A stretch of DNA of 59,426 nucleotides, the filler included, from Sphacelaria rigidula (Eukaryota): NCBI GenBank assembly GCA_964200075.2. It is 8 parts of 8 records of this genome, joined end to end, with 100 filler letters (N's around TTAATTAATTAA, not from the genome) between each part and the next. Parts side by side here need not be neighbours in the genome. Positions count along the whole stretch, not along the records: positions 14,883 to 22,223 come from CAXNAA020015353.1; 7 more parts are not named here. The stretch is one strand, 5' to 3'. Both the position numbers and the translations under genes were made by a program. A model generated the notes under the pieces. The model ran no database searches. It was not told the DNA's origin and saw nothing but the letters and a program-made list of their open reading frames with translations. Shown here in pieces: positions 3,446 to 59,426 of this stretch (within the stretch, counting starts at the first letter, position 1; every line of letters begins with the position of its first letter).

Positions 3446-4510
3446 GACCGAGGGGCGGGATGAGGCGGTGGAACGCTTGGTGGAGCGCGGTCCGGAGATG
3501 TTCAAAGATCCGGCGGGAGAGGAGTCCGCTCGGAAAGTCGCGCTTGAGGAGAAGCGTGACAGATACTGTGGCGAAAGGCCTCAGTGTCTTGAAAGCGGAG
3601 CGTCTGCGCGGCATCTTGCATCGCCGCGTTAACGCGTTTCGTCGTGTGCTACGGGGTGATCCTCCTGCGCGAGTGGAACCCCTGCGTGTTCAGCTAAAAC
3701 CTGGGACGTCCGCGGCGAAGACGAAGCCGCGGCGGTACGATCCGGAGAAGTCGAGTCGGTTGGCGTCGTGTATGCGGCTCTTTTGGCGCTCTGGTTGGTT
3801 CTCCGGAACATGCAGGCAATGTGGTCCAGTCCGGCGATGTCGGTTCCGAAGAAGGACTCGTTTCGCATGGTAAGCGACTACGAGGCCGTGAATGAGCAGG
3901 TTGAGAAGTCGCCGGTTGTGATGCCCAACCGAGAGGCGGACATGCATGATCTGTTGAGTGCTCGTTTTTTTGGCAAGTTGGGCCTCCTCCAAGGTTACTG
4001 GCAGATGCCGTTGGCGGAGGAGGCGCAGGAGATTTTCACAATCACAGCGGTAGGCTTATTTACCCCAAAGCGAGTGCCGCAAGGCGTGCTGAATGCCACG
4101 GCATATTTTCAAGGCACCATGACAGAACTTGTCGTCGGCTTGAAATGCAAGAAGTTCGATTGCAACGACGCTGGCCGGTCGAGGATATGACGCATGAACC
4201 ACTGGCTTTCCTCGGTGATAGTTTCAAAGGCTCGCAGTTGCGTTGGGCCACAATTGACGCGGAAGATTTTGCTATCGTGAGCAATTTTCGTCGTTTGGAG
4301 CATCTTTTGTGGGATGGGAAGCACATTTTCACGGATCACCGGAATCTCGTGTATATTTTCAACCCGGAAACGTGCATTACGTCTGTGTCGAGGCGTTGAC
4401 ACAACGTTTGGAGGGTTGAAAAGGTGTTCTTGGTCAGTATCGTTATTCGATTTGTCACATTTCGGGTGACTGTAACGCGTGGGGTGACTTGTTTTCGCGG
4501 TTGATGAATA
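3445..4510 (+). pseudogene. pol: pol remnant: partial reverse transcriptase and RNase H
   Basis: The RT N-terminal motifs are present, then the sequence jumps at ~4150 into RNase H. No YxDD motif seen. Confidence 0.8.
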
Positions 4511-7341: not shown

Positions 7342-7441
7342 NNNNNNNNNNNNNNNNNNNNNNNNNNNNNNNNNNNNNNNNNNNNTTAATTAATTAANNN
7401 NNNNNNNNNNNNNNNNNNNNNNNNNNNNNNNNNNNNNNNNN
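7342..7441. other. Artificial contig spacer
   Basis: N44-TTAATTAATTAA-N44; the core gives stops in all six frames. Confidence 0.99.
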
Positions 7442-14782: not shown

Positions 14783-14882
14783 NNNNNNNNNNNNNNNNNN
14801 NNNNNNNNNNNNNNNNNNNNNNNNNNTTAATTAATTAANNNNNNNNNNNNNNNNNNNNNNNNNNNNNNNNNNNNNNNNNNNN
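14783..14882. other. Artificial contig spacer
   Basis: N44-TTAATTAATTAA-N44. Confidence 0.99.
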
Positions 14883-17401
14883 CTCGCACTCAAACCACCA
14901 AGCGCGAAGCGCCGTGGTGTGTTTGGCGAGTCGCATGAAAGGTGAGCTGCATCCTGCAGAAAGTATTGGGCCCGAAGTCTACTGCTTATCTTGCATTTGG
15001 ATGACAGCCAACAATGAATTGCTTTATTATGGTATCGTCACTTCCAGAGACAGCCACGGCTTTTACACTGCCTCATGGGTGCCTAACCGGGACAGAGGGG
15101 GGCTTTTGGCTCCCGGTTTCGCCGCTCGATGACGACATCATTATGTACCATTTAACTGGTGAATGAGTACGCTATGCGTATCCTTTCAAATGGTTAATGG
15201 TCAGACGAACCATTTCCGAACCCTAGTGACTGGTCTCAGGTTGGAGAAGGCGTTGTTTCGGGGTTGAACATCATTGAAAGACAGAAACTTGTGTCGAAGA
15301 AACTGCCATTCCTTGTTTTGTCCGTGAACGACTTGTGTCGATAGGGCGCCAGTTGGTGGCAGCATTTCAGACGGTCCTGCTCACGGAAGCCGGTGTCATG
15401 TCGAAACAGCCCTGACCACAGTGCTCTGCTATGTCACTTGTAGTAGTCCCGGTTACGAAGAGTCACGGGTCTCCGATCGTTCATATTCCAGCCCCAAGAC
15501 AGTAACGTACTAGCACCACTTTCCGAGGAAGGTACGCTGCCGTCAACCTTCCGGGTTAAATGGTTCTACATGTTTTCGGCACAGGTGGCGGTCGGGGCCA
15601 CTGGTGCAGGGACAGTTCCCCATTATCATGCTACCCTATGTAGTCCCTGGCTGGTTACGCGTTTGGAGTGCAGTATAACTCACGATGCCCAAGGCAATCC
15701 ATATTATTATCGCCCGCAGTACGGGCCAGTCGCTGCGTATACACCCATAGTCACAAGCTGGACGTACTCGAGGTGATGAGCGGAAACACTCGCCACAATG
15801 TACTCGACGAAGGGAGAAGGCGAACCTGGAGGACGTACACAAAAATCGTAGGGTGGCATCTTCCAGAAGCGCATGGCAGCGCGCCATGATGGGATGTATC
15901 GGCGTATGCCGCCCACCTCGTGATAATCACCCGGCTGTTGTGGGCTAAAGACGCCAACCGTTGTATTACTGAGGGACATTGCGCACGTGGAACTGATGGT
16001 ACCAACTTGTATCATGTATGAGACGAGGAGCACCCATCGGAGTGGCCATTAGAGGGTGTTGGGCAAAACGTTTTCGCAACGGAAGAGTCAGAGTGGAATC
16101 ACTCCAGATTTGAAGCTTTTGGAAGTTGGAAGTGGACGCCGAATAGCTCATAGCGGAAGCTGATGGGACGTGTCTTGACGCTGATTTTTTTGTCGCAGTG
16201 ATCGGCCGCAGGTTGCTCGGCCATGTGCGATCGACCAGCATCCAGGTCGGGAATACCTGAGTTCAGCACAGCACTCACTGTACACTAAGAGGTGGGGTTT
16301 CTGTGTTGTACCGTACCCTGCGGCACCCTACCGTGCCGCACACTACGCCTCACTGCACTTTGACTACTTCACTGCACTACCGTGCATTACAGGGCACGTC
16401 AGTACTGTAGTGATGTTTATTGTGGAGTACAGGGAGAGCTGTACATACAGCGCAATGCATAGCCCTACAACAGTAAACTGCAGCACGGTGGAATACAACG
16501 ATACCGTACAGTCAGTTGTACAGTAGTGCAGTAGAACACGCAGCACTCCCAAACAACAAAGCCGCATGTGATGATTTTATGACATGTCACTCATAAGGGT
16601 GGTGCAAGACGTCATGGCCTCCAACGGAATGGCAATACAGTCAGGTGTAGTACTCCTTGTGCGCTGTAGGCCGCGAATCTTTCACACAGTCTTCTTCCAG
16701 CTGAGGTGGTCAAAAGTGGGGAACTGCATCCAAGGCAACGGAGTATACCCGCCGAGCATTCAAGTTCCACGCAACACAACCAAGCGAATGCTGGGACCAC
16801 GGCGGCGTCAGAGAGGTCCTCCGATTGCGATGCCAAGCGTCGCTACTTCAAAGCGAATGGTCCATTGTGATAAGCATGGCAGTAATAGTCAATGTCCCAC
16901 TTTGCTTGTTGGGGTATATTGAATGTGGACTGGTTGTGGCCGAAGGTTTCACGATCAAAGTCAAGCGCTGCTTCTACTGTACACTCGCCCCGCCGTGATG
17001 CAGAGACGGTAGCAGTCCTCCGTTTCTCACAAAAAATGACGTCGGTTCCTCTCTGCCTGTTAGAACCGCGGTTGGGTTGTAAGAACACCGCAGTTCACGA
17101 ATCCGTTTGTGACTAAAAAGCTGTGATAGCGGCCTATCCATTTTTTTTTTAACACGGCTTTTTGTTGAACGTGCTGATCAATTCTTTCAGGCTTTTGCTG
17201 TATTGGTCAGCTGATCAAAGCGCTCAGGGGTGTGGCGGTGTGGATTGTAGCAGCAGCAGGGCTCCCACGCCCTGTGTTGTGCTTTCAGTACCGCCGTGAA
17301 GGGGATGCTTACCCTGTGCCCGCAAGGATTTTTCGTCGAGGGCACAGCCTGGCGGGCAGCTAGAACGTGGAGTTTTACGCGCCACGCACGCTAGGGCTGG
17401 C

Positions 17402-19795
17402 ATGGTCGATGTGGAAAACAACATGTGCGGCGAGGAGGGCTCCCCCACAATGCCGTCATTCGGTGTAGCGGATAGCGGAGAGGCGGAGTTCCGCGCTGCA
17501 CACGCTCGGGCTGGCATGGTCGATGTAAAAAGCAAGAGGTGCGGCGAGGAGGGCTGCTCCACATGGCCGTCATTTGGTGTAGCAGGAAGCGGGAAGGTGG
17601 AGTTCTGCGCCAAGCACGCTCGGGCTGGCATGGTCGATGTGAAAAGCAAGAGGTGCGGCGAGGAGAGCTGCTCCACATCGCCGATATTCGGTGTAGCGGG
17701 TACCGGGAAGGGGGAGTTCTGCGCTAAGCACGCTCGGGCTGGCATGGTCGATGTGAGGAGCAAGTGGTGCGGCAAGGATGACTGTTCTAAAGTGCCGCTA
17801 TGCGGATTGGCGGGAAGCGGGGAGGGGGAGTTCTGCACCATGCACGCTCGGGTTGGCATGGTCTACGTGAAAAACAAGAGCTGCGGCGAGGAGGACTGCT
17901 CCACAAGGCCGTCACTCGGTGTAGCAGGAAGCGGGAAGGGGGAGTTCTGCGCCAAGCACGCTCGGGCTGGCATGGTATATGTGAAAAGGAAGACATGCGG
18001 CCAGGATGGTTGCTCTAAAGTGCCGCTATGCGGTGTAGCGGGAAGCGGGGAAGGGGAGTTCTGCGCCAAGCACGCTCGGGCTGGCATGGTCGATGTGAAA
18101 AGCAAGAGGTGCGGCGAGGAGGGCTGTTCCACAAGGCCGTCATTCGGTGTAGCAGGAAGCGGGAAGGTGGAGTTCTGTGCCAAGCACGCTCGGGCTGGCA
18201 TGGTATATGTGAAAAACAAGGGGTGCCGCGAGGAGGGCTGCTCGACATCGCCGTCATTCGGTGTAGCAGGAAGCAGGAAGGGGGAGTTCTGTGCCAAGCA
18301 CGCTCGGGCTGGCATGGTCGATGTAAGAAGCAAGAGGTGCGGCGAGGAGGGCTGCTCGACATCGTCGTCATTCGGTGTAGTGGGTAGCGGGAAGGTGGAG
18401 TTCTGCGCCAAGCACGCTCGGGCTGGCATGCTCCATGTGAAAGGCAAGAGGTGCGGCGAGGAGGGCTGCTCCACGTGGCCATCATTCGGTGTAGTGGGAA
18501 GCAGGAAGGTGGAGTTCTGTGCCAAGCACGCCCGGGTTGGCATGGTCGATGTGAGGAGCAAGAGGTGCGGCGAGGAGGGCTGCTCCACAAGGCCGTCATT
18601 CGGTGTAGCAGGAAGCGGGAAGGGGGAGTTCTGTGCCAAGCACGCTCGGGCTGGCATGGTAAATGTGAAGAACAAGAGGTGCGGCGAGGAGGGCTGCTCC
18701 ACAAGGCCGTCATTCGGTATAGCGGGAAGCGGGGAGGTAGAGTTCTGTGCCAAGCACGCTCGGGCTGGCATGCTCCATGTGAGAAGGAAGACATGCGGCG
18801 AGGAGGGCTGCTCGACATCGCCGTCATTCGGTGTAGTGGGAAGCGGGGAGGTGGAGTTCTGCGCCAAGCACGCTCTGGCTGGCATGCTCCATGTGAAGAG
18901 GAAGACATGCGGCGAGGAGGGCTGTCCCACAAGGCCGTCATTCGGTGTAGCGGGAAGCCGAAAGGTGGAGTTCTGTGCCAAGCACGCTCGGGCTGGCATC
19001 GTCGATGTGAAGAACAAGAGGTGCGGCGAGGATGACTGCTCCACATGGCCATCAATCGGTGTAGCGGGAAGCGGGGAGGTAGAGTTCTGCGCCAAGCACG
19101 CTCGGGCTGGCATGCTTCATGTGAAGAGGAAGACATGCGGCGAGGAGGGCTGCTCGACATCGCCGTCATTCGGTGTAGTGGGAAGCGGGGAGGGGGAGTT
19201 CTGCGCCAAGCACGCTCGGGCTGGCATGCTCCATGTGAAGAGGAAGACATGCGGCGAGGAGGGCTGTCCCACAAGGCCGTCATTCGGTGTAGCGGGAAGC
19301 CGAAAGGTGGAGTTCTGTGCCAAGCACGCTCGGGCTGGCATGGTCGACGTAATCCACAAGAGGTGCGGCGAGGAGGGCTGCTCCAAATGGCCATCAATCG
19401 GTGTAGCGGGTAGCGGGAAGGGGGTGTTCTGCGCCGAGCACGCTCGGGCTGGCATGGTCGGTGTGAGGAGCAAGAGATGCGGCGAGGAGGGCTGCTCCAC
19501 ATGGCCGTCATTCGGTGTAGCGGGAAGCGGGAAGGGGGAGTTCTGTGCCAAGCACGCTCGGGTTGGCATGGTCGATGTGAGGCGCAAGAGGTGCGGCGAG
19601 GAGGGCTGCTCCAAATGGCTATCATTCGGTGTAGCGGAAAGCGGGAAGGGGGAGTTCTGCGCCAAGCACGCTCGGGCTGACATGATCGGTGTGAAGAACA
19701 AGAGGTGCAGCGAGGAGGGCTGCTCGACATCGCCGTCATTCGGTGTAGTGGGAAGCGGGAAGGTGGAGTTCTGCGCCAGACACACCCGGGCTGGC
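17402..19795 (+). repeat. Coding tandem array of 21 x 114 bp
   Basis: Exact 114-bp periodicity with no indels. Confidence 0.97.
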
Positions 19796-20359
19796 ATGGT
19801 ATGTGTAAGGACAACCACGCGCGGCACGCAGGGTAGTAAAAAGCCCAGCCATCCGTTCGGTGCCGATCGTAGCGCGAGCGACGGTGGTCCCAGCGCCGAG
19901 ATCCGTCCTTGTTCGTGCGCCACTCGTGCTAGTCGAGGCGGTGTAGACTCCATAACCTTGCCGCCGGCCGCCCCGGGACACTTTGCAGGCGCTGTGGCAG
20001 CAGATGGGGTCTCGTCGGAGAGGGCAGCGGGGTCCATGAAAGTGAAAATGGAGATGACTCTCCCGGTCGCGCTTCTTCGTGAAGGGATAACGAGCAACGA
20101 ACTGGCTGCTGCACGATCCAGCATTTATGGTAGAATGATCAAACGCAAGTTTAGCAAGATCAAAGACGCGGGCAGCGGTAGCAGCATACCTAGTGGAAGG
20201 AGAAGCGCCAGGCGGCTCTGTGAGGTTGCGCCGGTGGAAGTGGCATTTGGTGTGGCAACGGCGGCTGATGCGATGTCTGTAGAGGAGGTCGACGACGTGA
20301 AATTGGAGTTGGAGGTGTCTGCGCCTTCTGGTCACGTGTCCGCGGTGGTATCCAGCTGA
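17402..20359 (+). CDS. EsV-1-7-type cysteine-repeat protein: 21 x 38-aa C-x4-C-x16-C-x2-H repeats plus ~187-aa tail
   Basis: Uninterrupted 985-aa ORF. Consensus MVDVKSKRCGEEGCSTxPSFGVAGSGKVEFCAKHARAG matches the EsV-1-7 repeat of Ectocarpus and its phaeovirus. The true start may lie in an upstream exon (possible acceptor ttctttcag at 17190). Confidence 0.9.
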   Translation: MVDVENNMCGEEGSPTMPSFGVADSGEAEFRAAHARAGMVDVKSKRCGEEGCSTWPSFGVAGSGKVEFCAKHARAGMVDVKSKRCGEESCSTSPIFGVAGTGKGEFCAKHARAGMVDVRSKWCGKDDCSKVPLCGLAGSGEGEFCTMHARVGMVYVKNKSCGEEDCSTRPSLGVAGSGKGEFCAKHARAGMVYVKRKTCGQDGCSKVPLCGVAGSGEGEFCAKHARAGMVDVKSKRCGEEGCSTRPSFGVAGSGKVEFCAKHARAGMVYVKNKGCREEGCSTSPSFGVAGSRKGEFCAKHARAGMVDVRSKRCGEEGCSTSSSFGVVGSGKVEFCAKHARAGMLHVKGKRCGEEGCSTWPSFGVVGSRKVEFCAKHARVGMVDVRSKRCGEEGCSTRPSFGVAGSGKGEFCAKHARAGMVNVKNKRCGEEGCSTRPSFGIAGSGEVEFCAKHARAGMLHVRRKTCGEEGCSTSPSFGVVGSGEVEFCAKHALAGMLHVKRKTCGEEGCPTRPSFGVAGSRKVEFCAKHARAGIVDVKNKRCGEDDCSTWPSIGVAGSGEVEFCAKHARAGMLHVKRKTCGEEGCSTSPSFGVVGSGEGEFCAKHARAGMLHVKRKTCGEEGCPTRPSFGVAGSRKVEFCAKHARAGMVDVIHKRCGEEGCSKWPSIGVAGSGKGVFCAEHARAGMVGVRSKRCGEEGCSTWPSFGVAGSGKGEFCAKHARVGMVDVRRKRCGEEGCSKWLSFGVAESGKGEFCAKHARADMIGVKNKRCSEEGCSTSPSFGVVGSGKVEFCARHTRAGMVCVRTTTRGTQGSKKPSHPFGADRSASDGGPSAEIRPCSCATRASRGGVDSITLPPAAPGHFAGAVAADGVSSERAAGSMKVKMEMTLPVALLREGITSNELAAARSSIYGRMIKRKFSKIKDAGSGSSIPSGRRSARRLCEVAPVEVAFGVATAADAMSVEEVDDVKLELEVSAPSGHVSAVVSS

Positions 20360-21461
20360 CGAAATAAGTAGCTTGATGAGTCCATCTGTGCGCATTTCAC
20401 CAACTGACGTCAGCTTGGTGCTGTTGGGCGACATTTCGTCGTGGTTGTGCCGGTTTATACCACGATGCATATACGTTTGTGTTAGTCCGGGCTGTGTGGT
20501 GCTGCTCTGTCGAGTGACGGATGGGGGAAACGAGGACGCCGACTAATCGCTCACACATCATTGTGTAATGAGAGGTTTTGTTCTATGCAGTATCCTCGTC
20601 CTTCCCACCTTGTTCCTCGTCCTTCAAAGCTCATCGGGCTTGTTTGTTCTAGCACCCGCATCGTTTTTGCCCGTCCTTGTGCAGGAATGGTGCCGTCGTA
20701 GCCATTTGCGCTGCTCGCAGGACTATCCCGTTCTTCGCAATACACATTGCTGGGCTCTTGATGTTTCTGATGGCAGAAGTACCCATCGGCAAGATATTGT
20801 GTCAAGCACTTGACAACGTCGACATGGACAAGTCACATACCGCGTGATCCCTGACTCTCGCGTATAAGACGTCATGATGTCACGCGAAGTAGCTTCGTCT
20901 GTATGCAAGTCAAAACCTCATATTCGCGATCACGTTTAGGCGGATACTTCGAGCACCCGTCCTCGCGTACCACCTGATGGAAGCCAAACCTTCCGGGCGC
21001 CCTAAAGTTGAATGAACGCCAACACGACAATGGGGTAGCTGTCAACTCCCCTCGAAGTCAACATGTTTGAAACCACAGAACCGCAAGTTGAACTCAACAG
21101 CACATAGTGCAAGCGGCAATCTAGCTGGATTCCCGCTGCCTGTGGGCTTCCCGCCTCCAGTAGTGTATATCGCTTGAATCACATTCCAATTCCAATTCCA
21201 ATACCAATACCAATTTCAATTTCAATTTCACAAAGTGAAGTTGGTTTCTGCTGTGGGTAAAAGTTCGACTAGGAGGTTTTTTGCAACTCCGTTTTTGCGT
21301 CCTGATTCTTGCGCTATTTTTTTCGTGTGGGGATTCTTGCAATCGGACTTTTGCGATAGTATTTTTGCTATTTTTTCCAGTCTAAATCCCTTGCAGGCTG
21401 GTTTGCGCATACCACCCAAAATGACACTCATCGGCAAAACATCACGGCGTGTTAAGGAGTT

Positions 21462-22223: not shown

Positions 22224-22323
22224 NNNNNNNNNNNNNNNNNNNNNNNNNNNNNNNNNNNNNNNNNNNNTTAATTAATTAANNNNNNNNNNNNNNNNNNNNN
22301 NNNNNNNNNNNNNNNNNNNNNNN
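22224..22323. other. Artificial contig spacer
   Basis: N44-TTAATTAATTAA-N44. Confidence 0.99.
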
Positions 22324-24038: not shown

Positions 24039-24348
24039 CATAGCAAAATTGGGCATTATTTCAGGATTTAACACCTAAAATCGGCGTGAAGTTTTGCGGA
24101 CGAGTGTTTAGAGATTCATAGGCGTGAACCAGCCTGTAAACAAAGTTGAAGCAGAGACGAGCACAGCCAATTCGGGCAGGGGATAAGGGCGAACGCCAAA
24201 AAAGAACGGCTGGCTGGACACACGGAGAACGACGAATCTTCGCGGGAACATACACTATGCTCAGCAACGTCAAACGAGAAAAAATGCGCTCCTCGTGCCG
24301 CACTCAAAATGGCAACAAGAACGCAAAATCACAATGCTGTATGTGTAC

Positions 24349-24900
24349 CTCGCCAAGGCATCGCTCGTGGGGTGGAGCCATTGCGCCCTTTTTCGCCTCA
24401 CTTCTTCCGCGTCCATCCCTTCTCTTTGAGCATCACCATCCCCTCTCTCGTCTCCTGCCTCTCCGCTCTCCTCCTCCTCCCGTCGCGATCGCTCCGGCCT
24501 CACGAAAGGGTCCCCCTCGGTCAGCATAGCCACCATGGCAACGGCGTGCGCGAGTACACCACCCTGCACCGCAAGCAGCAGCATTTTTGCGTAGCGCGCT
24601 CCTACCGGCAGAAGGGCAAGCGCTTTGCCGACGGCCGTGATCTCCTGCCCGGTGTCGGCACCGCTTCCACTGCCGCCGCTGCGGCCGGCGGCGCCGGCTG
24701 CGGTCGCTCCGAGGTTCGACAGGAGGCTGACCGCCGCACGAAGGCCAGCAGCATCCGGGGCGGTGGGAAACGGGAAGCGCGATACGTCCACGACGCCCAT
24801 GGCTTTCATCTGGAGCGTGACATCTTCTAAAGGGCGCGTGAACACCTCCGGCGGTGCGAAGGGCTCGAGAGTCTGGGAGTACAGTGCGCTGCTGTACAAC
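24349..24900 (-). CDS. DHX37: DHX37/Dhr1 helicase internal exon (end of motif VI region, HA2 domain)
   Basis: LYSSALY..PPEVFTRPLEDVTLQMKAMGV..FPFPTAP..GKALALLPVGARYAKML. AG and GT borders; phase matches the upstream exon. Confidence 0.88.
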
Positions 24901-25582
24901 CTGGAGGGGGAGGAGGGGAATAGTGGATTGATCGGCGGTGCGCGGACTCACTTGACGCTCAGCGTATGAAACGTGTCACGCGAACACGGCGCGCGCGCGT
25001 GTGTTTTTGTTCTTCATCTATTTTGTACGGCTTCTTTACCTGAAGCCGTCGGGCAGGGGTCCGGCCGTTCCTTTTTTTCAACGGGGATCTGTATTAGATT
25101 TTTGATTGATTGATTGATGGATTATCGCAAATTGACTCATCTCTCAGGAGTCATGATCCAGCCGTGGTCATTATCCACATGATCGACGTAACCGAGATAA
25201 AACAAAAGGGAAACAATCGCTGAAGGAAAGTGATCAAAACAGAAAGGTGAAATAGACATGAGGAGTAGACTGAAAAAAAACATGTAGAACAAAAAGAAAT
25301 AGCCGGCCTTTGCAGCATGGCTTCAGGTGGAAAAGGTCTTGCACAAAAGCACACTCATCCATACCCAATCGAGGAACAAACAAGTCTATCCTGACACTAA
25401 TTATTTTCCTCCATCCTTTCCTTTCGTTTCATTTTCCCTCATTTTTCGTTCTTCTTGCTTTCTGTTTGTTTCTGTTCTGTTTCTCGTTTTAGAGCTTGCT
25501 TGGCTTGTTTTTTCCATCCTCAATTTCCCCGTTATCGAGCTGCCTTCGGAAAGTGTTTTTTCTTTCATTCACCTTGTGGGTA

Positions 25583-26184
25583 CGAGCTGGGCCAGCCAAG
25601 AGTAGGTGTGAATCTCGCTCAGGCGACGCACGGCGCGATATTAGGAGGTGGACACTGAAATTTTGACAGCAGCTTTTTATGAAGGAAATGCAGAAGATCA
25701 CGTGACCAGCAAAGAAAAAAGAGAAAAAAACAGATAAGTCATTGGCATTTGAAATTTCAGCAAAAAACAGATAATGTCAGAAGTCCAGGAAAAAAAAAAA
25801 ATCTGTAGCTGCTCACGTAAAGTATCAGTACCTTGGGTGCACAAGGTCTACCTGAAATTTTTAGCTCAAGAGTCGTCGGCTTGGGCCGTGCGTTCAACAT
25901 TTTCCGTGATGATGCTGCACCCCTATAAATCAAGTGATGGGAAACTCCAATTATGGACGTCATGAGTTCGAATCCCGACAGATTCTCTTTTTTTTTTCGT
26001 CCGTCGTTAAGGTTACCCATTATGTAATACATTTTTTTTCATTCCTTTCTAGTTCAGGGGCGGTACCGTGTGTTACCAAGTTGGTCTACCCTTCACAGTG
26101 ATATGCTTACATCGGGTTCATTCGGGAAACTGGGAAAGCTGTGGTGTGAGCAACTTTTAGCCGCTCTCAAGCTGGCCCAGCTCG
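25583..26184. mobile_element. Tc1/mariner-type MITE (~600 bp) in a DHX37 intron
   Basis: TA|cgagctgggccagc ... gctggcccagctcg|TA, perfect 14-bp TIR. Second copy at 46354-46955. Confidence 0.85.
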
Positions 26185-26567
26185 TACATCATTATTGTGA
26201 CCATGGCTTGTTTCCGGGGGGGGTGGGGGAGTTTGTGTGCGACAATCAATCACTCAATCAATAAATCAACCAATTAATCTTCAAGAATCTGGCAGGCGCG
26301 AATTGACGAAATCTGGCGTGGTGTGTTTTCGCGTCCAACTTGACATCGCACGTGTTATGGCGAATGCTCGAACGTAAAACGCGCACAACAGCAGCTCGAA
26401 GCATGCAACGATACCCGGTCGCCACCAAAGGCCGATTCTCACGTCTCCTCCACACGCACTGCACGGACTAACGTCAACGTCAACATCTACAGGACAAAAA
26501 AATCCCAACGGCGCCCCAGTTTCACCGCGACGGTGTTCCCCCCCCCAATCTTGGAATCCTTACTCAC

Positions 26568-27441
26568 CGGTAGCAATGACCCGGTCCGGTTCGACCCGCT
26601 CGACCCGCTCGCTGATCCGCCGATGCCCGCGAAACCCAGCCCACCTCGAACTGGCTAATTCCGCTGCCGCGCTGCACGACACGGCGCTTCTGTCGCCCGC
26701 AGTCTACGACATACGATATGCCGGGGATTGTGATACTGGTCTCCGCCACGTTGGTCGCTACGACCACGAGTCGATGTCCCTCCGGCGGAGCCGAAAATAC
26801 CCTGGATTGCTCTTCGGCAGTGAGCATCGCGTATAGCGGCACGACGTGCACCGGCGGTAGTTGTTCCTCCTGTGGTTTCTCGTTTCGGTCTCCGTGCAGA
26901 CTCTCTTCGCCATCACCGCCGTCGCTATCGCTGCTCAGCTCCCCCGCGCAGTCAACGCTGCCGCCGCCGCTGGTGCCTCCGCCACCTTTCACTGCCATTT
27001 GCGATACCTCGTCGTCGTCATCCTGGGCGTCATCACCATCATGGCCATTGCCGTCGTCCTCATGAACCATGTCTGCCAGGAGAGCAGCATCTTCCTCATC
27101 ATCGTCCGCTTCTCGAAACAACAGCTTCTCCCTGTCGGTCTCCCGGGGTTTCTCCCTCGGCACTCCTCCTTCCCCCGGTTGCCCGCTGTAACTGGCGTCG
27201 TCCTGAACTTTGGATACCACCACCGCCGCCGATACAGAAGATCCTGGCGCTACCGAAATGGATGCAGAAGTTCCTTCGCCGCCTTTCCCTACCTCCTCGA
27301 AATTTGCCCGAGCGCGCTTCTTTTTTTTCTTTTCCCGTGCCCTTTTCTTGCCCTGCCCGCTGGACGCATCCTCGGCCGTCGACGGCGGAGTCTTGTCCTC
27401 CGCAGGTAGTTCTTGCTTGCTGTTCTTGCTTTTGCCGATCC
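26568..27441 (-). CDS. DHX37: DHX37/Dhr1 internal exon: long charged insertion plus RecA2 motifs V and VI
   Basis: [53 protein letters not shown]. Acceptor cttcacag, donor gtgagt, 874 bp, phases consistent. Confidence 0.92.
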
Positions 27442-28086
27442 CTGTGAAGGTATCGCGTGAGTAGTTTGTGCAAGAGCACAAAAAAGTGGACAGAAAGCCC
27501 GGTTGTGCGTCATCCATGTGAACAGCAAAATCGAATGACCAGCGGAGACCCGAAACTGACGCTCCTTACAGTACACAAAACGCGGGGACGACAGTAGAAT
27601 GGTCGACCAGATCACTATAATACTATAGTACGAATCGCCTGTGGCCATTTCGGCTACTGACTGCCATAATGCGTCTTGCCCATAATATAGTGGCCCCGGC
27701 CACAAGGGTCTGTATTATATGCCTGCTCAATGAAAGTGTGGTACGTGCAAGGTCTTCCGTCGTGTTTGCGGAGTACTGCTGTAGTGTGTATGCACACTGG
27801 CCATCATGCTAACTACTTCAACCTCGCGGAAGCGGACAAGAGCGACCAGGAGATGGGCAGAGGATGAGCAAGGTGACGACACACAAGCGTATCGCTGTAG
27901 CCGTACCGAGCAAGTAGACCACACGTCTACTGCGATGAGACTGGGATGCGCTTGCTACACACTTCTCTCTCTGTATCTACCCCCCCCCCCCTCTCTGCCC
28001 TCTTCTCCCTCTGTCACTGTCTCTCTCGACAACAGAGAGATAGTAAAAAGAGAGGAGAAAAGCACCCAAACACAAGAGCAACTCAC

Positions 28087-34024: not shown

Positions 34025-34542
34025 ATAAGAAGTACGCCTTCCAAGGTACTGCAGAACCGTGTGACGACCTGTATCCGACGTACTGCGGACGAAAATCAGC
34101 CAACATCACAATACCCGGCAAATTTTCGACCCAATGATTCAGAACGAATTTTACCTGGATCTGTCTTTTTTTCCAATGAAGATCTCCATAATTTTGAATT
34201 TCTAATAAACGTGCCTGTGGTATCAAAGAACCTCCGTTGTGGAGATATCATGTTTACCCTGAAAACCAAGTATATTCTGAATGCGGACAACAGCCGTTTT
34301 GACCAGCTGCTCTCTTTCCACTTCCTCAAGGCCCGTTCAACGGGAGCGCCCAATTGCGAGTCGTGCAAAAACAACCGGGTCGACTATGGCGCAACAGGGT
34401 GGAATTGTTGTCAGCTGGCATCACTTGGAAGACAGAGTGCAACAGCAACAGAAAAGTTGATACTACTCGAGCGCAAACCACGGCTTTGAACAAAAAAACA
34501 CGATGAGTACGGCATGCATTTGACGGACAACCCAGGCCTAAC

Positions 34543-34655
34543 CGTAGAGGAAGAGTAGAGACAGAAGCCGCCAGCGACGAGATTTCTCCCCGGCTGGAGA
34601 GCGTTCTCCGTGGAGTTCTTGCTTGGGTCCGCCAAGTAAACGCCAAAAATAGTGC
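34543..34655 (-). CDS. FBPase-like internal exon 2
   Basis: GTIFGVYLADPSKNSTENALQPGRNLVAGGFCLYSSST; AG/GT borders. Confidence 0.88.
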
Positions 34656-35187
34656 CTGCAGCGGTATCAACGACGCTTGGTAAGATCGAGGGGGCGAAGC
34701 GTTCACGCTGTTTTGGTCGCTTGCGCTGCGAATCACGAAGTATCTCCATCAATCAGGGGGGTCAGTCTGTGTACCACCGAACTGAGCGAGTGGGGCTGGT
34801 TCTGCGTTCCCTAGTTTCGAGGGATATTCTCCGATATGTTCATTCTTTCGCTTCTTTACTTTTGCCATTATTGTCGTCGAGGTACTTCTCTTTAGCCAGT
34901 AGTCCCCGCATATTTACCTCGGCTGTGTCCATCTTGTGTGGCCACGGCTGGATTGGCGGAGGATGACGAAATGTCAGTCAAATGAGCTCACGCGAATCAG
35001 CAGCCAGCTCCCTCCGGTTTATTCTCATTGACTTCAGGTCCACTGCAACGCCGTCAATAGTCATTCGACCACTTCGGCCACTCGTAAGGTGCGAACAAGA
35101 CTCACGTCATACAAGTCAACTCACCTTAACTTGAGTTAACTCATTTTCTTGTACTGTACAGTAGGTCAGCAGTGCCTAGTTCCGTGG

Positions 35188-49663: not shown

Positions 49664-50877
49664 ATGTCGACTACCGAGGTACCGGCAATAGAGCCAGCAG
49701 AGGCGACTGTAACCCCAGCCGTTCTGAGGGAAGAGTTGCGGCCGCCCAGTTACGGGAGTTTGTATTCTGAGGGTGCTCCTCGTTCGCTCTACACGAAATA
49801 CGTGGAATACAAGAAGAGGGTGGAGCATGCGAATGCGGGGGGTGCGGTAAAGCATCAGGTGGTTTCTATGGCGCAACTCGTGCCTACCCCCCTCCGACGC
49901 GTCTTCGCGAGAAAATTGCATGAAAAGCATACCATAACGCCGCTGAAGTTGCCCGCAGCGATGAAGAAGCTCGCAGAGCATGCGGCAGGCGCGGAGGTAG
50001 AGTTACACAGGCGTTCGCGGCCGTGGCAAGGGCTGTCGCAATGAACCACAAGGGGAGGACCATGCGTGAGAGGGTGGAATCCATAATGGGTAAGTTGGAG
50101 ACGTATTTTTCGGAAAATCCCAACGTCGCGATGGTTTGTCGTTCCTCCGATGGGAAATTCCGCCCAGGGCCCGCTGCGGTGGTCACGAAAGCGATGGCGG
50201 AGGGTCTGGCACCGGCGGAATTTAAGCAGGCCGTGCTTGTGCAGTTACAGCACGAAACAAACTGGAAGTCAGACCCGTATTTAGTCATGGATACCGTGGT
50301 GGCTGAAGCTCAGGCATGGCGGCGGGTCGAAGTATTCGGAAAATCATCCACTTCGTCGCCGCAGTTTTCGAGCTCGCGTAACCAAGGATCAAAATCCGCA
50401 GGCAGTGCCGCGTCCAATACTACTTGCTACCAGTGTGGCCAGGGAGGCCACATCGCACGGAAGTGCCCAACGCCTACTGAGGAGGAGTCTGGGCAGACGA
50501 GTGCCGCGCGCCCTTGCAATCACAAAGGAGGGGAAGGTAATCGGGGTGGTGGCGGAGGCGGATCCTCCAGCGGTGGGGATGTACAGTCGAGTTCCCAACA
50601 GCAGCAGCAGCAGCAGGGGCAGTGGCGTCAGCAAGGGTCCGGTTCTGGGTCCGGCTCAGCCGCAGGGGCTGCTGCTTCACAACGGGCGGTGCAGGTGGGA
50701 CCGACCTCTGTAGTGTCGGGCTCGGTGCCGGCGCCGCCGGCAGCAGAGCAAGGCGAGACGCCTGCCGCGGAGCCGGCCGGTTTCCAGCTGAAATTTGGAT
50801 CCACTGCTGTTCCGGCCGGGATACCGCTGCATTTGGTTCTGCAGGCGGGGCTTCGTACCCGCCGGCGGTGCCGGTGA
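49664..50877 (+). pseudogene. gag: gag (frameshifted)
   Basis: ORFs 49526-50044 and 50023-50877 join across a frameshift; CCHC knuckle present. Confidence 0.8.
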
Positions 50878-56735: not shown

Positions 56736-59426
56736 TGTTCGAGTGATTCAGATACCCAGTAATGCTGGATCTACGTAGAAACCGGGGTCGGGGTGACGTA
56801 CGAGTACCGACAGTCAAGTGTGTGCAACTGTGGTACAGTACGGCTGAGAGCAGCGGAGCAGTCCGCCTACCTTGATCATTCTCATTAACCTACTCACCAT
56901 CTCATCAGCACTCTCCCAAGTTATAGTAGAACTTGGGTGCTCTTCAATAGAAGAAACTGAAACCATTACCCTGTGCCTGAGCCAAGTGATACACTAGTGA
57001 TCAATCGATTGGGCAAGTATGGCTAGGAACGATGGTAATGCTCCGTCTTCAGAAGAAAGATTAGACGGGCTCACGAGTCAGCTTGAAAGTATGATGAGTC
57101 TATTCAGTGGTCAGTTTAACACACTGACAGAGATGGTAAAAGATGTACAATCTACACATACTGTAATACAGGGTAGGGTAGATGGCATCGAAGATCGAGA
57201 ATCCGGAGGCGCGAGGTGGAGCGGCGTCGTCGAAAGCGAAGAAAATCAAGCAACACAACAACACCGGGCTGACAGCGCAGCCAACCAAAGCACACCTCAA
57301 GGCCGAAGACATAGCCGAGAGGGCGGGCGGGGAGCTCCGAGCGGGAGCGACCACAGGACAGCGAGCGACGGAGCAAGGGGTGTAGACCCCGCAAGTGAGT
57401 CCGTCGCAATGTTCGATCACGACCGACAAGGTGTCCAAAGTATTTCTGGGTTCCCGGTTTTCAAGGCAACTGTACCCAAGTTCTCTGGAAAGGGTTCAGA
57501 GTTCAACCACTACAGTCACGAACTAATCATGTTTACTAGGAGCGAAGCAGTTGATTGGGTGTTCACCATGCCAGAAAATAGTGCATACGGTGTGGAGGTG
57601 GGAAACAAGGCGTTATCCCTAAGTTATCTTAAAGCAAGGCACGGAAAGGGCACTGTAGCTGCAAACGTGAGAGCGAGGCAAATGTTGGTGGCAAGTCTCG
57701 AACATAAGCGGGACCGGGATGTTTTGTTCCGAATTCCGTCTCCAGCAGCTGTGTGGCGCAAGTTAAATGATTTCTACAGCCCCAAGACCAACGGAGCTAG
57801 ATTAGCTCTTCTAGAAAAGTATGATCACGTGAAGATTGGAGTTCGCGATGATCCTGTTCGAAAACTAATCGAGACGGAAGAGGTGGCGAGAGAGTTACAA
57901 TCACACGACACCAACATCATCCTGACGGAGGCGCAAACCCTCCTCGAATTTGTCAATGCGCTTCCTTGCGAGTATAACTACCAAAAGCAGGCGTTAAAGG
58001 AGCGCGAAGGTCCACTCACGAGGGAAGTCGTAGTGACGTCGGTTCGAAAACGTTTCGAATCGGCACTTTTCAAGCAGGAACTCGCCAAGGGGAAGATGGC
58101 TTCCTCGGGCGACCAGGCCCTTGTAATCTAGGGCCATCCCGGGAAACCTAACGGTTCACACCGGATAGGTAAGCCGGGAAAGACCCCAAACCCGGGTTGC
58201 GCAGGTGACGGGAGGCAGGGCAAGGACAACCAGTCGCCGGCTTCATCGTCAACGAGCCCGTCGGGGGCTGCGACGCCGTTTAGGTGCCACGTTTGTCAGA
58301 AGATGATCACACATCGAGCGAGAGATCGGCCAGACAGGCGTTGTGTTAAGTGCGGGGAGAGAGGACATAGTTTGATTGACTGTCAAAGCACTGTGGAGGA
58401 CGCGGCGGCTGTGGAGGACGCGGAGATTGTGATGGGCGTGGCGAGAGACGTGGTGGACGACGACTCCGTCTGTTCGGATGCTGATGCAGAAGCGTTAACC
58501 AGCCCCGACATGACGGTGGACGAGGTCAACACAGGCGAGTATGCGTTTGCAACTGGGGAGGGGAATGTAGAACAGTCAGATGGGGGCGACCCGTGAGTAC
58601 TTGACACGGGGGCCACTGCGCATTTTTCTCCTGATTCAAGTAACAGGACGGACTATAGAAAATGCAGTGGAAGGGTACTACGGTGTGCGGGCGGTGGTAC
58701 CTACCCGATCGTGGGAAGAGGAAACTTGGCTCTATCTTTAGGATCTGACGGACGCGATAAAGCCTTGCATTCGAAAAATGTAGACCACGCAACTTGTGTC
58801 CGTCCCCATCTGTTGTCACTGACCAGGATGTCCAACGCGGGTCACACCTACATTGGGTCTAGTGATGGTTCCCGGGTTGAGTTGAAGTAAGGCAATACGC
58901 TGAAGATCCCCGTTCAACACAGACAACTATTATTAATGTACACCCACTGCATTTCTCCGAATGGTCATGACAAGCATGCGTCAGCATGCGCTGTGATTGC
59001 CCTGGGGAAACTTCCCAACCCCCAAGTTAAAGACATAAATGATTTCCATTGCAAACACGCGCATGTTCACGAGGACCTGCTCCGGCGGACTGCAAAACAG
59101 CTCGGAGTGGAGCTGCGCGGCGAGTTGAGACCGTGCCGAGGATGCTCGGAAGGAAGGGGACTTCGGCAGCCCATCCCAAGATCGACCCATACACGAGCAC
59201 AAGCGATCTCGACGCCCGACGGAGCGAGGGATGCCAAGCTCGAGGGAGGGACGGCCGGCAGCGAGTCCGCGGAACGGCAAACTCCGGCGGCGCGTGCTTC
59301 ACCCCGCGGTTCACGGCACGTGTCGTTCTTGCTCCCCAACCGAGAGCTGGACGCAGAAGCGGCACAACAGACCCCCACTATTGGCGGGGGGATGAGATGA
59401 CCTCGCCGCTTCCTTGCAGAAGCAGG
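56736..59426 (+). mobile_element. Decayed Ty1/copia LTR retrotransposon, cut by the window end
   Basis: Putative LTR TGTT..CCCA (56736-56918), gag, two knuckles (CHVC.., CVKCGERGHSLIDC), protease (W>stop)VLDTGATAH, GAG-pre-integrase HCKHAHVHEDLL..CRGC. Protease followed directly by integrase is copia order. Confidence 0.88.
57019..58131 (+). pseudogene. gag: copia gag (UBN2-like), prematurely stopped
   Basis: 370-aa ORF with PKFSGK, AAVWRKL and FVNALPCEY motifs. The reading frame resumes after the TAG into the zinc knuckles. Confidence 0.75.

Follow-up and report, generated by a model that had tools for sequence, protein, structure and literature searches.

The locus described here raises the question of whether a long tandem array of zinc-finger-like units, in which a constant scaffold carries a few variable residues, is a modular recognition surface or merely the product of repeated duplication. 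It lies in a 59,426-nt stretch of DNA, called the window below, that joins eight parts of the genome assembly GCA_964200075.2 of the brown alga Sphacelaria rigidula, and it comes from the part named CAXNAA020015353.1. The gene carrying the array of 21 units is an intact nuclear gene of the alga and an unusually long member of the EsV-1-7 family. The new observation is that positions 6 and 17 of the unit outpace synonymous sites in independent viral arrays as well as in the window array, which suggests that selection favours a separate identity of each repeat, as would be expected of residues in contact with a ligand. The best explanation, with a probability that we put at about 0.45, is that of an intact brown-algal EsV-1-7 gene whose array is a modular binder, the fast positions being its ligand contacts.

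The 21-unit array and its fast positions

A single frame spans the whole array and stays open for 985 codons across a repeat that is 85% identical, up to a stop codon at 20357-20359. Tandem Repeats Finder places the repeat at 17379-19800, with a period of 114 nt, 21.2 copies, 85% matches, 0% indels, and a score of 3276, and cutting the open reading frame (ORF) from its first ATG at 17402 yields 21 units of 38 amino acids (aa); the indel-free repeat proposed in an earlier, sequence-only reading of this DNA is thereby borne out. The unit listing also reproduces two other details given there: the distribution of ligands, with C9 and H34 present in 21 of the 21 units and C14 and C31 absent from unit 1 alone, and the exact residue series at position 17 of units 1-21 (M,W,S,V,R,V,R,S,S,W,R,R,S,R,W,S,R,W,W,W,S). 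The pattern C-x4-C-x16-C-x2-H was found in 20 units by a regular-expression scan of the six frames of the window, and the same scan revealed no second array in the window. A hidden Markov model search confirmed the suspected membership of the EsV-1-7 family, since Pfam PF19114 (EsV_1_7_cys) matches the protein with 898 bits against a cut-off of 25 (E 2.4e-278) in 21 stretches; the three other Pfam families listed for the array protein have zero passing stretches. Judging from the invariance of the four ligands and from passages of the literature, each unit probably binds zinc via its Cys3His set. The array part of the protein is basic, with 126 K+R against 85 D+E, a net charge of +41, and an isoelectric point of 9.04. 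Upstream of the array an in-frame stop codon is located at 17297-17299 (translation of 16901-17515). The gene can be divided as follows:

17379..17401, + strand: partial unit preceding the first ATG; it comprises the final 23 nt of a decayed unit 0 and encodes ..THARAG
17402..17515, + strand: unit 1 of the unit cut, degenerate (C14 replaced by S, C31 by R), holding the first ATG
17516..19795, + strand: units 2-21, twenty canonical EsV-1-7 units C9-x4-C14-x16-C31-x2-H34, with variable codons 3, 6, 8, and 17
19796..20356, + strand: C-terminal non-repeat tail of 187 aa, without a Pfam family (Pfam and homologue searches)
17402..20359, + strand: whole ORF, 985 codons plus stop
20360..20790, + strand: candidate 3' untranslated region, a weak hint from the contig ends of three small runs

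The variation among the units is concentrated at few positions, 3, 5-6, 8, and 17, as had been noticed from the sequence. In units 2-21 position 3 is occupied by D (9), H (5), Y (3), G (2), and N (1), position 8 by R (12), T (5), W, S, and G (1 each), and positions 5-6 read KS, RS, KN, KR, KG, RR, or IH; the entropy reaches 1.98 bits at positions 3 and 6, 1.90 at position 17, and 1.59 at position 8. Eight positions (4, 7, 9, 14, 21, 30, 31, and 34) are invariant in the same units. On a maximum-likelihood tree of the units 82 amino-acid steps fall on the 34 non-ligand positions with a dispersion of 1.76 (P 0.006 against equal rates), and the top five positions take 32 of the 82 steps (P 0.003).

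The ratio of nonsynonymous to synonymous change (dN/dS, or omega), obtained from Nei-Gojobori counts among the units, is 0.52 for all 38 codons and 0.35-0.41 for the 33 codons outside positions 3, 5, 6, 8, and 17, and the unit scaffold is thus under purifying selection. For positions 6 and 17 together omega is 2.68 relative to the array-wide dS; the nonsynonymous diversity (pN) reaches 0.42 at the former and 0.47 at the latter, compared with a synonymous diversity (pS) of 0.216. The diversity at the first and second codon positions amounts to 0.57 in codon 17, 0.42 in codon 3, and 0.36 in codon 6, whereas it is 0.21 for ten four-fold sites and 0.12 in the other codons. When neutral codons were simulated on the unit tree at a rate calibrated on the ten four-fold sites, position 17 took 8 amino-acid steps against 3.3 expected (P 0.009), position 6 took 8 against 4.1 (P 0.023), and the five picked positions took 32 against 20.3 (P 0.005 at the calibrated rate). 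The result at positions 6 and 17 is therefore an excess of nonsynonymous change, and not the lack of excess that the sequence-only reading had named as evidence against itself. Taken within the window alone, this excess is not robust; it is suggestive, not decisive.

The same positions could be followed in giant viruses. A scan of IMG/VR gave 35 giant-virus loci encoding relatives, 15 of which hold arrays of 5-12 canonical units with DNA, and a metagenome scan added one locus, of viral type; at the DNA level the algal sample consists of the window array. Positions 6 and 17 had been chosen beforehand from the window. In the viral arrays pN exceeded the array-wide pS at position 6 in 12 of 15 cases (Wilcoxon P 0.0008 against four-fold sites) and at position 17 likewise in 12 of 15 (P 0.004), and position 19 exceeded it in 14 of 15 (P 0.0002). 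For positions 6 and 17 pooled this was so in 11 of the 15 arrays (Wilcoxon P 0.006), with omega of 0.73-6.5, compared with 0.15-0.61 for the rest of the unit. Positions 3, 5, and 8 passed pS in 4 of 15 arrays each; of the set of variable positions proposed at the outset, 6 and 17 thus show the excess, but 3, 5, and 8 were not replicated in viruses. The nearest DNA neighbour of a viral unit lies within its own array for 111 of the 115 units, and therefore each viral array diverged internally by itself. Since positions 18, 20, and 21 are conserved in these arrays (pN 0.08, 0.11, and 0.00, respectively), misalignment or register slips fail to explain the fast positions.

At the protein level, 15 other arrays with at least five canonical units have their highest within-array variability at positions 6, 5, and 17, and their within-array profile correlates with that of the window (Spearman 0.72) better than the family-wide profile does (0.43). 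In 14 Sphacelaria proteins, with 39 units, variability is highest at positions 6, 5, 26, 17, 8, 11, and 3. Position 19, the most variable one in the viral arrays, is S in 17 of 20 window units and in 33 of the 39 Sphacelaria units, and therefore the variable set of this lineage differs slightly from the viral set. Positions 6 and 17 are fast family-wide, and positions 3 and 8 are fast in the Sphacelaria lineage.

Neutral shuffling and the search for a residue code

The pattern can also be read without any recognition, as neutral shuffling. In this explanation positions 3, 5, 6, 8, and 17 are the least constrained surface positions of a zinc knuckle and carry no specificity, and a few single-base mutations at them were spread by unit and block duplication, unequal crossing-over, and gene conversion. 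The history of the array is compatible with such a route. Recent duplication, both in tandem and in blocks, produced the 21 units; units 14 and 17 show 0 nt differences and units 13 and 16 show 5, so that units 13-14 and 16-17 represent a recent two-unit block duplication. At position 17 the residues W, S, R, and V are each encoded by a single codon (TGG, TCG, AGG, and GTG), and the first three are connected by single-base steps via TGG. The sequence-only reading had taken TGG, AGG, and TCG to be one base apart, which is correct for TGG-AGG and TGG-TCG, but AGG and TCG differ by two bases; the W/S/R set looks like the outcome of single-base steps from TGG. Position 17 also carries a phylogenetic signal, following the unit tree with 8 steps against 10.9 under permutation (P 0.02). 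Because of the one codon per residue and of this partial following of the tree, much of the pattern at position 17 was inherited by duplication. Heavy homoplasy is, moreover, seen at synonymous sites too, for example 6 steps at Cys31.

The numerical tests leave room for the same explanation, and the following results weigh, together with the behaviour of position 17 on the tree, against a binder with selected contacts. The five-position P rises to 0.084 with a neutral rate of 2.0, the rate itself being based on ten four-fold sites only, and a top-five sum of 32 steps is ordinary (P 0.70) if all 34 non-ligand codons are neutral. Measured against their own few synonymous sites, positions 3, 5, 6, 8, and 17 have a dN/dS of 0.70. 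In the viral arrays the GC content at third codon positions is 0.13-0.25 in 10 of 15 cases and there are few synonymous sites per array; the simplicity of Nei-Gojobori counts, the AT-rich viral third positions, and gene conversion could distort omega. Finally, in five groups of related proteins (30, 9, 7, 5, and 4 members, possibly paralogues) a repeat differs at the variable positions from its counterparts in relatives about as much as the repeats differ from one another, and the two kinds of variability track each other with Spearman coefficients of 0.67, 0.97, 0.93, 0.66, and 0.74.

Pure neutrality, however, predicts equality of nonsynonymous and synonymous change at most. Yet at positions 6 and 17 of the window array the nonsynonymous diversity is the higher of the two, and the same excess recurs in 11-12 of the 15 independently diverged viral arrays, or in 14 of them for position 19. 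Nor does a simple lack of constraint single out the fast positions: positions 10, 25, 29, and 36 are equally free family-wide, with a mismatch of 0.83-0.88, yet they are nearly fixed within the window array (0.10-0.19). Neutral shuffling is, on balance, a rather unlikely account of the whole pattern.

The interpretation of the array as a binder whose fast positions are ligand contacts does not bring with it a code that could be read off. No conserved code is visible in the five groups of possibly paralogous proteins. Across 507 units of the family the residues at position 17 are diverse (R 27, Q 24, I 13, L 6, K 5, and H 5 percent, T and more), and those at positions 6, 17, and 19 are mainly S, N, H, R, Q, K, and T. 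Covariation of positions 6 and 17 is absent as well, their mutual information in 389 units ranking 80th of 703. Thus, of the constant scaffold with a small alphabet of variable residues that the sequence-only reading had described, the scaffold with few variable positions stands, but the alphabet at position 17 is broad once the family is considered. In the same way, its idea of a recognition module gains from the excess of change at positions 6 and 17 recurring in independent arrays, but not from the relatives, among which a conserved code was not seen. The recognition-module reading is plausible, and a fixed residue-to-base code remains hypothetical.

Predicted fold, possible ligands, and known repeat systems

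An AlphaFold2 model built with 52 homologues has a mean confidence score (pLDDT) of 79.6 and a predicted template-modelling score (pTM) of 0.38; with 16 window-only rows the pLDDT was 27.9 and the model unusable. The predicted fold of the single unit can be regarded as fairly confident, but a pTM of 0.38 means that the arrangement between units is not predicted. According to DSSP the modelled unit has a strand at 20-22, a bridge residue at 30, and a single helical turn at 32-34, and the next unit begins with another strand, at its positions 1-3; the MVDV strand of the next unit would thus pack on the previous finger and bring its position 3 near positions 19-21. Searches for a fold of known function gave little. 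A Foldseek search of the PDB returned 0 matches at E <= 0.001, and the top score of VIA-align against 48,161 chains, obtained with RING domains, was a Z of 3.3, too low to be meaningful. These two outcomes, like the missing prediction of the unit arrangement, tell against a binder of the proposed kind. A sequence profile search of the PDB produced a single chance match (E 0.94), and a search of the ESM Atlas with three units nothing usable.

Combined with the selection results, the model allows the following mechanism to be proposed. Each unit would fold as a small one-zinc finger, and the MVDV strand of the next unit would pack onto the FGV strand (20-22), linking the fingers like beads on a string. 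The fast positions would lie beside a conserved basic cluster (K5, K7, R8, K27, K33, and R36) and touch the ligand, giving each unit an identity of its own. The array would therefore serve as a modular binder of a long, polymeric target, most likely nucleic acid or chromatin, which would fit a transcription-factor-like role. Positions 6 and 17 are concrete residues to be swapped or mutated in binding assays.

The basic character of the array and the prevalence of S, N, H, R, Q, K, and T at positions 6, 17, and 19 are hints towards nucleic acid or chromatin, and further ones come from the family. EsV-1-7 repeats are fused, according to Pfam, to a RING finger (P0107, E 7e-10) and to a Tudor domain (P0029, E 1.7e-08), and in P0057 they accompany a reverse transcriptase match of 28.4 bits, below the gathering cut-off of 29.6. 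A Tc1/mariner transposase has been described as having acquired an N-terminal EsV-1-7 domain, in a passage of PMC12477816. In a passage of PMC12629598 the family is said to have been hypothesised to consist of zinc-finger transcription factors, and the motif is called a possible new zinc finger in passages of 10.1101/2024.02.19.579948 and PMC12477816. The passages of the family literature considered here, to which the founding paper and the supplements do not belong, deal with the expansion of the family, its link to viruses, IMM, and the zinc-finger hypothesis; they contain no analysis of an EsV-1-7 ligand, structure, or variable position.

Sixteen of the 17 viral array ORFs, as well as locus L036, end in a common C-terminal domain, about 175 aa long, that has an invariant RPD..ExDExxH..RxNPD motif and two Cys pairs (for example L012:3853-4374 and L003:3973-4497). 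The motif resembles the Vsr/DUF559 group, a likeness that sequence searches of Pfam and the PDB did not confirm: Pfam at E <= 1 and the PDB profile search were unconvincing, the best match being Hjc in 1 of 15 domains with an E of 0.05. The tail of the window protein is unrelated to this domain as far as an hhalign comparison with an alignment of the 15 viral C-terminal domains can tell (probability 0.4%), which again does not favour the proposed reading of the algal array. It can be imagined that EsV-1-7 units form a novel class of modular nucleic-acid-reading zinc fingers, with the target set by positions 6 and 17, together with 19 in viruses or 3 and 8 in Sphacelaria; the host arrays would then be readers of long DNA or RNA sites and the viral nuclease-like fusions programmable cutters. 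This narrower proposal is doubtful. If true, it would add a new recognition scaffold and would explain how the family supplies developmental regulators to brown algae. With the viral nuclease-like fusions, a target site could be read out directly.

Proteins are another conceivable partner. The units would then be protein-binding fingers, similar to LIM, RING, or B-box modules, with the fast positions facing their partners, possibly in a host-virus arms race, as the family is common to brown algae and giant viruses (Nucleocytoviricota). The only, weak, fold likenesses are to RING and B-box-like fingers (Z 2.0-3.3), a RING E3 domain is found fused to EsV-1-7 in P0107, the use of W, V, I, and L at position 17 suits a protein interface, and rapid change between relatives with omega above 1 fits conflict genes. 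The fold matches are, however, far below meaningful levels, the arrays are strongly basic, and the fusions to a transposase, to a sub-threshold reverse transcriptase, and to the viral RPD..ExDExxH domain point to nucleic acid instead. A protein-recognition or conflict interface is accordingly regarded as improbable, and the array as a modular binder, most likely of nucleic acid or chromatin, is preferred.

With the EsV-1-7 family (PF19114/IPR043822, including IMMEDIATE UPRIGHT (IMM) and EsV-1 gene 7) the window protein shares the C-x4-C-x16-C-x2-H spacing and the tandem period of 38 aa, 38 being also the commonest spacing in homologues, and it belongs to a family marked by expansion in the brown-algal lineage and by occurrence in Nucleocytoviricota. 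EsV-1-7, to which the developmental regulator IMM belongs, is among the largest gene-family expansions in brown algae; a passage of 10.1101/2024.02.19.579948 speaks of as many as 335 genes in a single species. Like the Ectocarpus members as described in passages of a 2026 preprint, the window protein has no other Pfam domain. Its length sets it apart, as ten scanned homologues have at most 16 Pfam stretches and 17 viral ORFs at most 14, compared with 21 units in the window, and IMM has five repeats according to a passage of 10.1101/2024.02.19.579948. The same source, in the part available here, places a specific N-terminal domain ahead of the IMM repeats, whereas the window ORF starts inside the array without an N-terminal non-repeat domain, an upstream exon being possible and the comparison relying on the description of IMM and not on its sequence. 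The 187-aa tail is a further difference from the family, its five best matches being from Sphacelaria rigidula. The arrays of giant viruses (L001-L035 and L036) are built of the same unit, with positions 6 and 17 fast in both, but they end in the RPD..ExDExxH..RxNPD domain, which the window protein lacks.

Arrays of C2H2 fingers, such as those of the KRAB-ZNF and PRDM9 type, consist of tandem one-zinc modules with a few quickly evolving contact positions and are reshaped by unit duplication. The window array may resemble them in its constant scaffold, fast contacts, and unit duplication. The ligand spacing is different, however (C-x2-4-C-x12-H-x3-5-H as opposed to CCCH with x4, x16, and x2), the beta-beta-alpha finger contrasts with the short strands and one-turn helix of the predicted model, and the window protein has no Pfam match to zf-C2H2 at E <= 0.01; membership of the C2H2 arrays was rejected on the grounds of the ligand spacing and the missing match. 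With TALE, PPR, and PUF proteins, whose residue-to-base codes have been demonstrated, the array shares the concept of one repeat with few specificity residues in long arrays, and a constant scaffold of this kind is indeed found in the window. These proteins are helical, zinc-free superhelices, whereas the model of the window protein has short strands and one-turn helices at a pTM of 0.38, and the variable residues of the window are not conserved among relatives and the alphabet of the family is broad. Summed matches to PF24906 (Zf_WRKY19) were also encountered, in P0016 (E 5e-13) and L007 (E 1.2e-23) as well as in P0006 and L001, with no single passing stretch; the PF24906 and EsV-1-7 knuckles may be distantly linked, judging from these profile matches. 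The window protein has no match to PF24906 at E <= 0.01.

The C-terminal tail, expression hints, and genomic setting

When used as a query by itself against 1.84 billion representatives, the tail retrieves 12 proteins at E <= 1e-3, of which the best is 81% identical, and the five best relatives that were looked up are all Sphacelaria rigidula proteins. The shared tail therefore places the gene in a Sphacelaria-type subfamily defined by it. The relatives inspected combine the same tail with 4 to about 8 preceding units, some of which are decayed or deprived of ligands, and the window array is by far the longest among the members of the subfamily seen. In the paralogue P0182 several ligands are lost. 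The conserved blocks of the tail include MKVKMEMTL and DVK.ELGVSAP, and the basic stretch IKRKFSKIK might be a nuclear localisation signal. The best full-length relatives of the window protein show 38-51% identity only, and a query of five units has Sphacelaria rigidula proteins as its best relatives, with 57-65% identity over part of the query.

Contigs of three small sequencing runs from two studies cover 19560-20790 at 99-100% identity and end at 20755-20790, about 400 nt past the stop codon, where a genome-sized run goes on. Only a guess assigns two of the small runs to RNA, the third being of unknown type, and the contigs show neither strand nor level; their ends are a weak hint of a transcript end. 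None of the runs carrying the sequence is on record as RNA. In one contig of each of the four runs 20120 is joined to 20192, skipping 71 nt of the tail coding region. The skip is not an intron, because the join also stands in the DNA-sized run, and it could represent an allele or a paralogue. In all four runs the contig depth, when summed over the last units (19560-19819), surpasses that of the unique tail 50- to 150-fold, and therefore the organism holds very many near-identical (at least 95%) EsV-1-7 units elsewhere.

These data bear on the last alternative, a decaying or non-functional expansion in which the ORF would be an accident of a GC-rich, stop-poor tandem repeat. Open stretches of 416-599 codons do indeed exist in the array's other frames and on its opposite strand, and the decay of unit 1 and of partial unit 0, the ligand losses in P0182, and the lack of a run recorded as RNA could all be cited in its favour. 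Against this, a complete set of four ligands survives in 20 of the 21 units, there are eight invariant positions, dN/dS comes to 0.35 once the variable positions are set aside, and the frame runs into a tail conserved in 12 other proteins; the small-run contigs that cover this tail and end about 400 nt past the stop add a weak argument. An accidental ORF is, in the light of all this, highly improbable.

The surroundings of the gene were surveyed by comparing 128 stop-to-stop ORFs of at least 110 codons from the whole window with Pfam. Among the matches of these ORFs there are no virus-typical protein families in the window, and its DNA has the appearance of normal eukaryotic nuclear DNA. Exons of a DEAH-type helicase (HA2_C, Helicase_C) are found at 24273-27565 on the minus strand and an exon-like fragment of fructose-1,6-bisphosphatase at 34414-34752, also on the minus strand, both representing ordinary host genes. 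Retrotransposon remnants, with RVT_1 and RT_RNaseH, a CCHC zinc knuckle, and a copia-type gag, are located at 3660-4396, 49924-50874, and 57001-58128. Paired 44-nt runs of N recur every 7441 nt (7342-7441, 14783-14882, 22224-22323, and so on), amounting to 616 N in total; they have the look of masking and not of assembly gaps. It is also worth mentioning that an ATTCCA microsatellite of 7.5 copies at 21183-21314 and the sequence after it have depths of 45,305 and 13,392 in the genome-sized run, and this extreme depth suggests a high-copy dispersed element.

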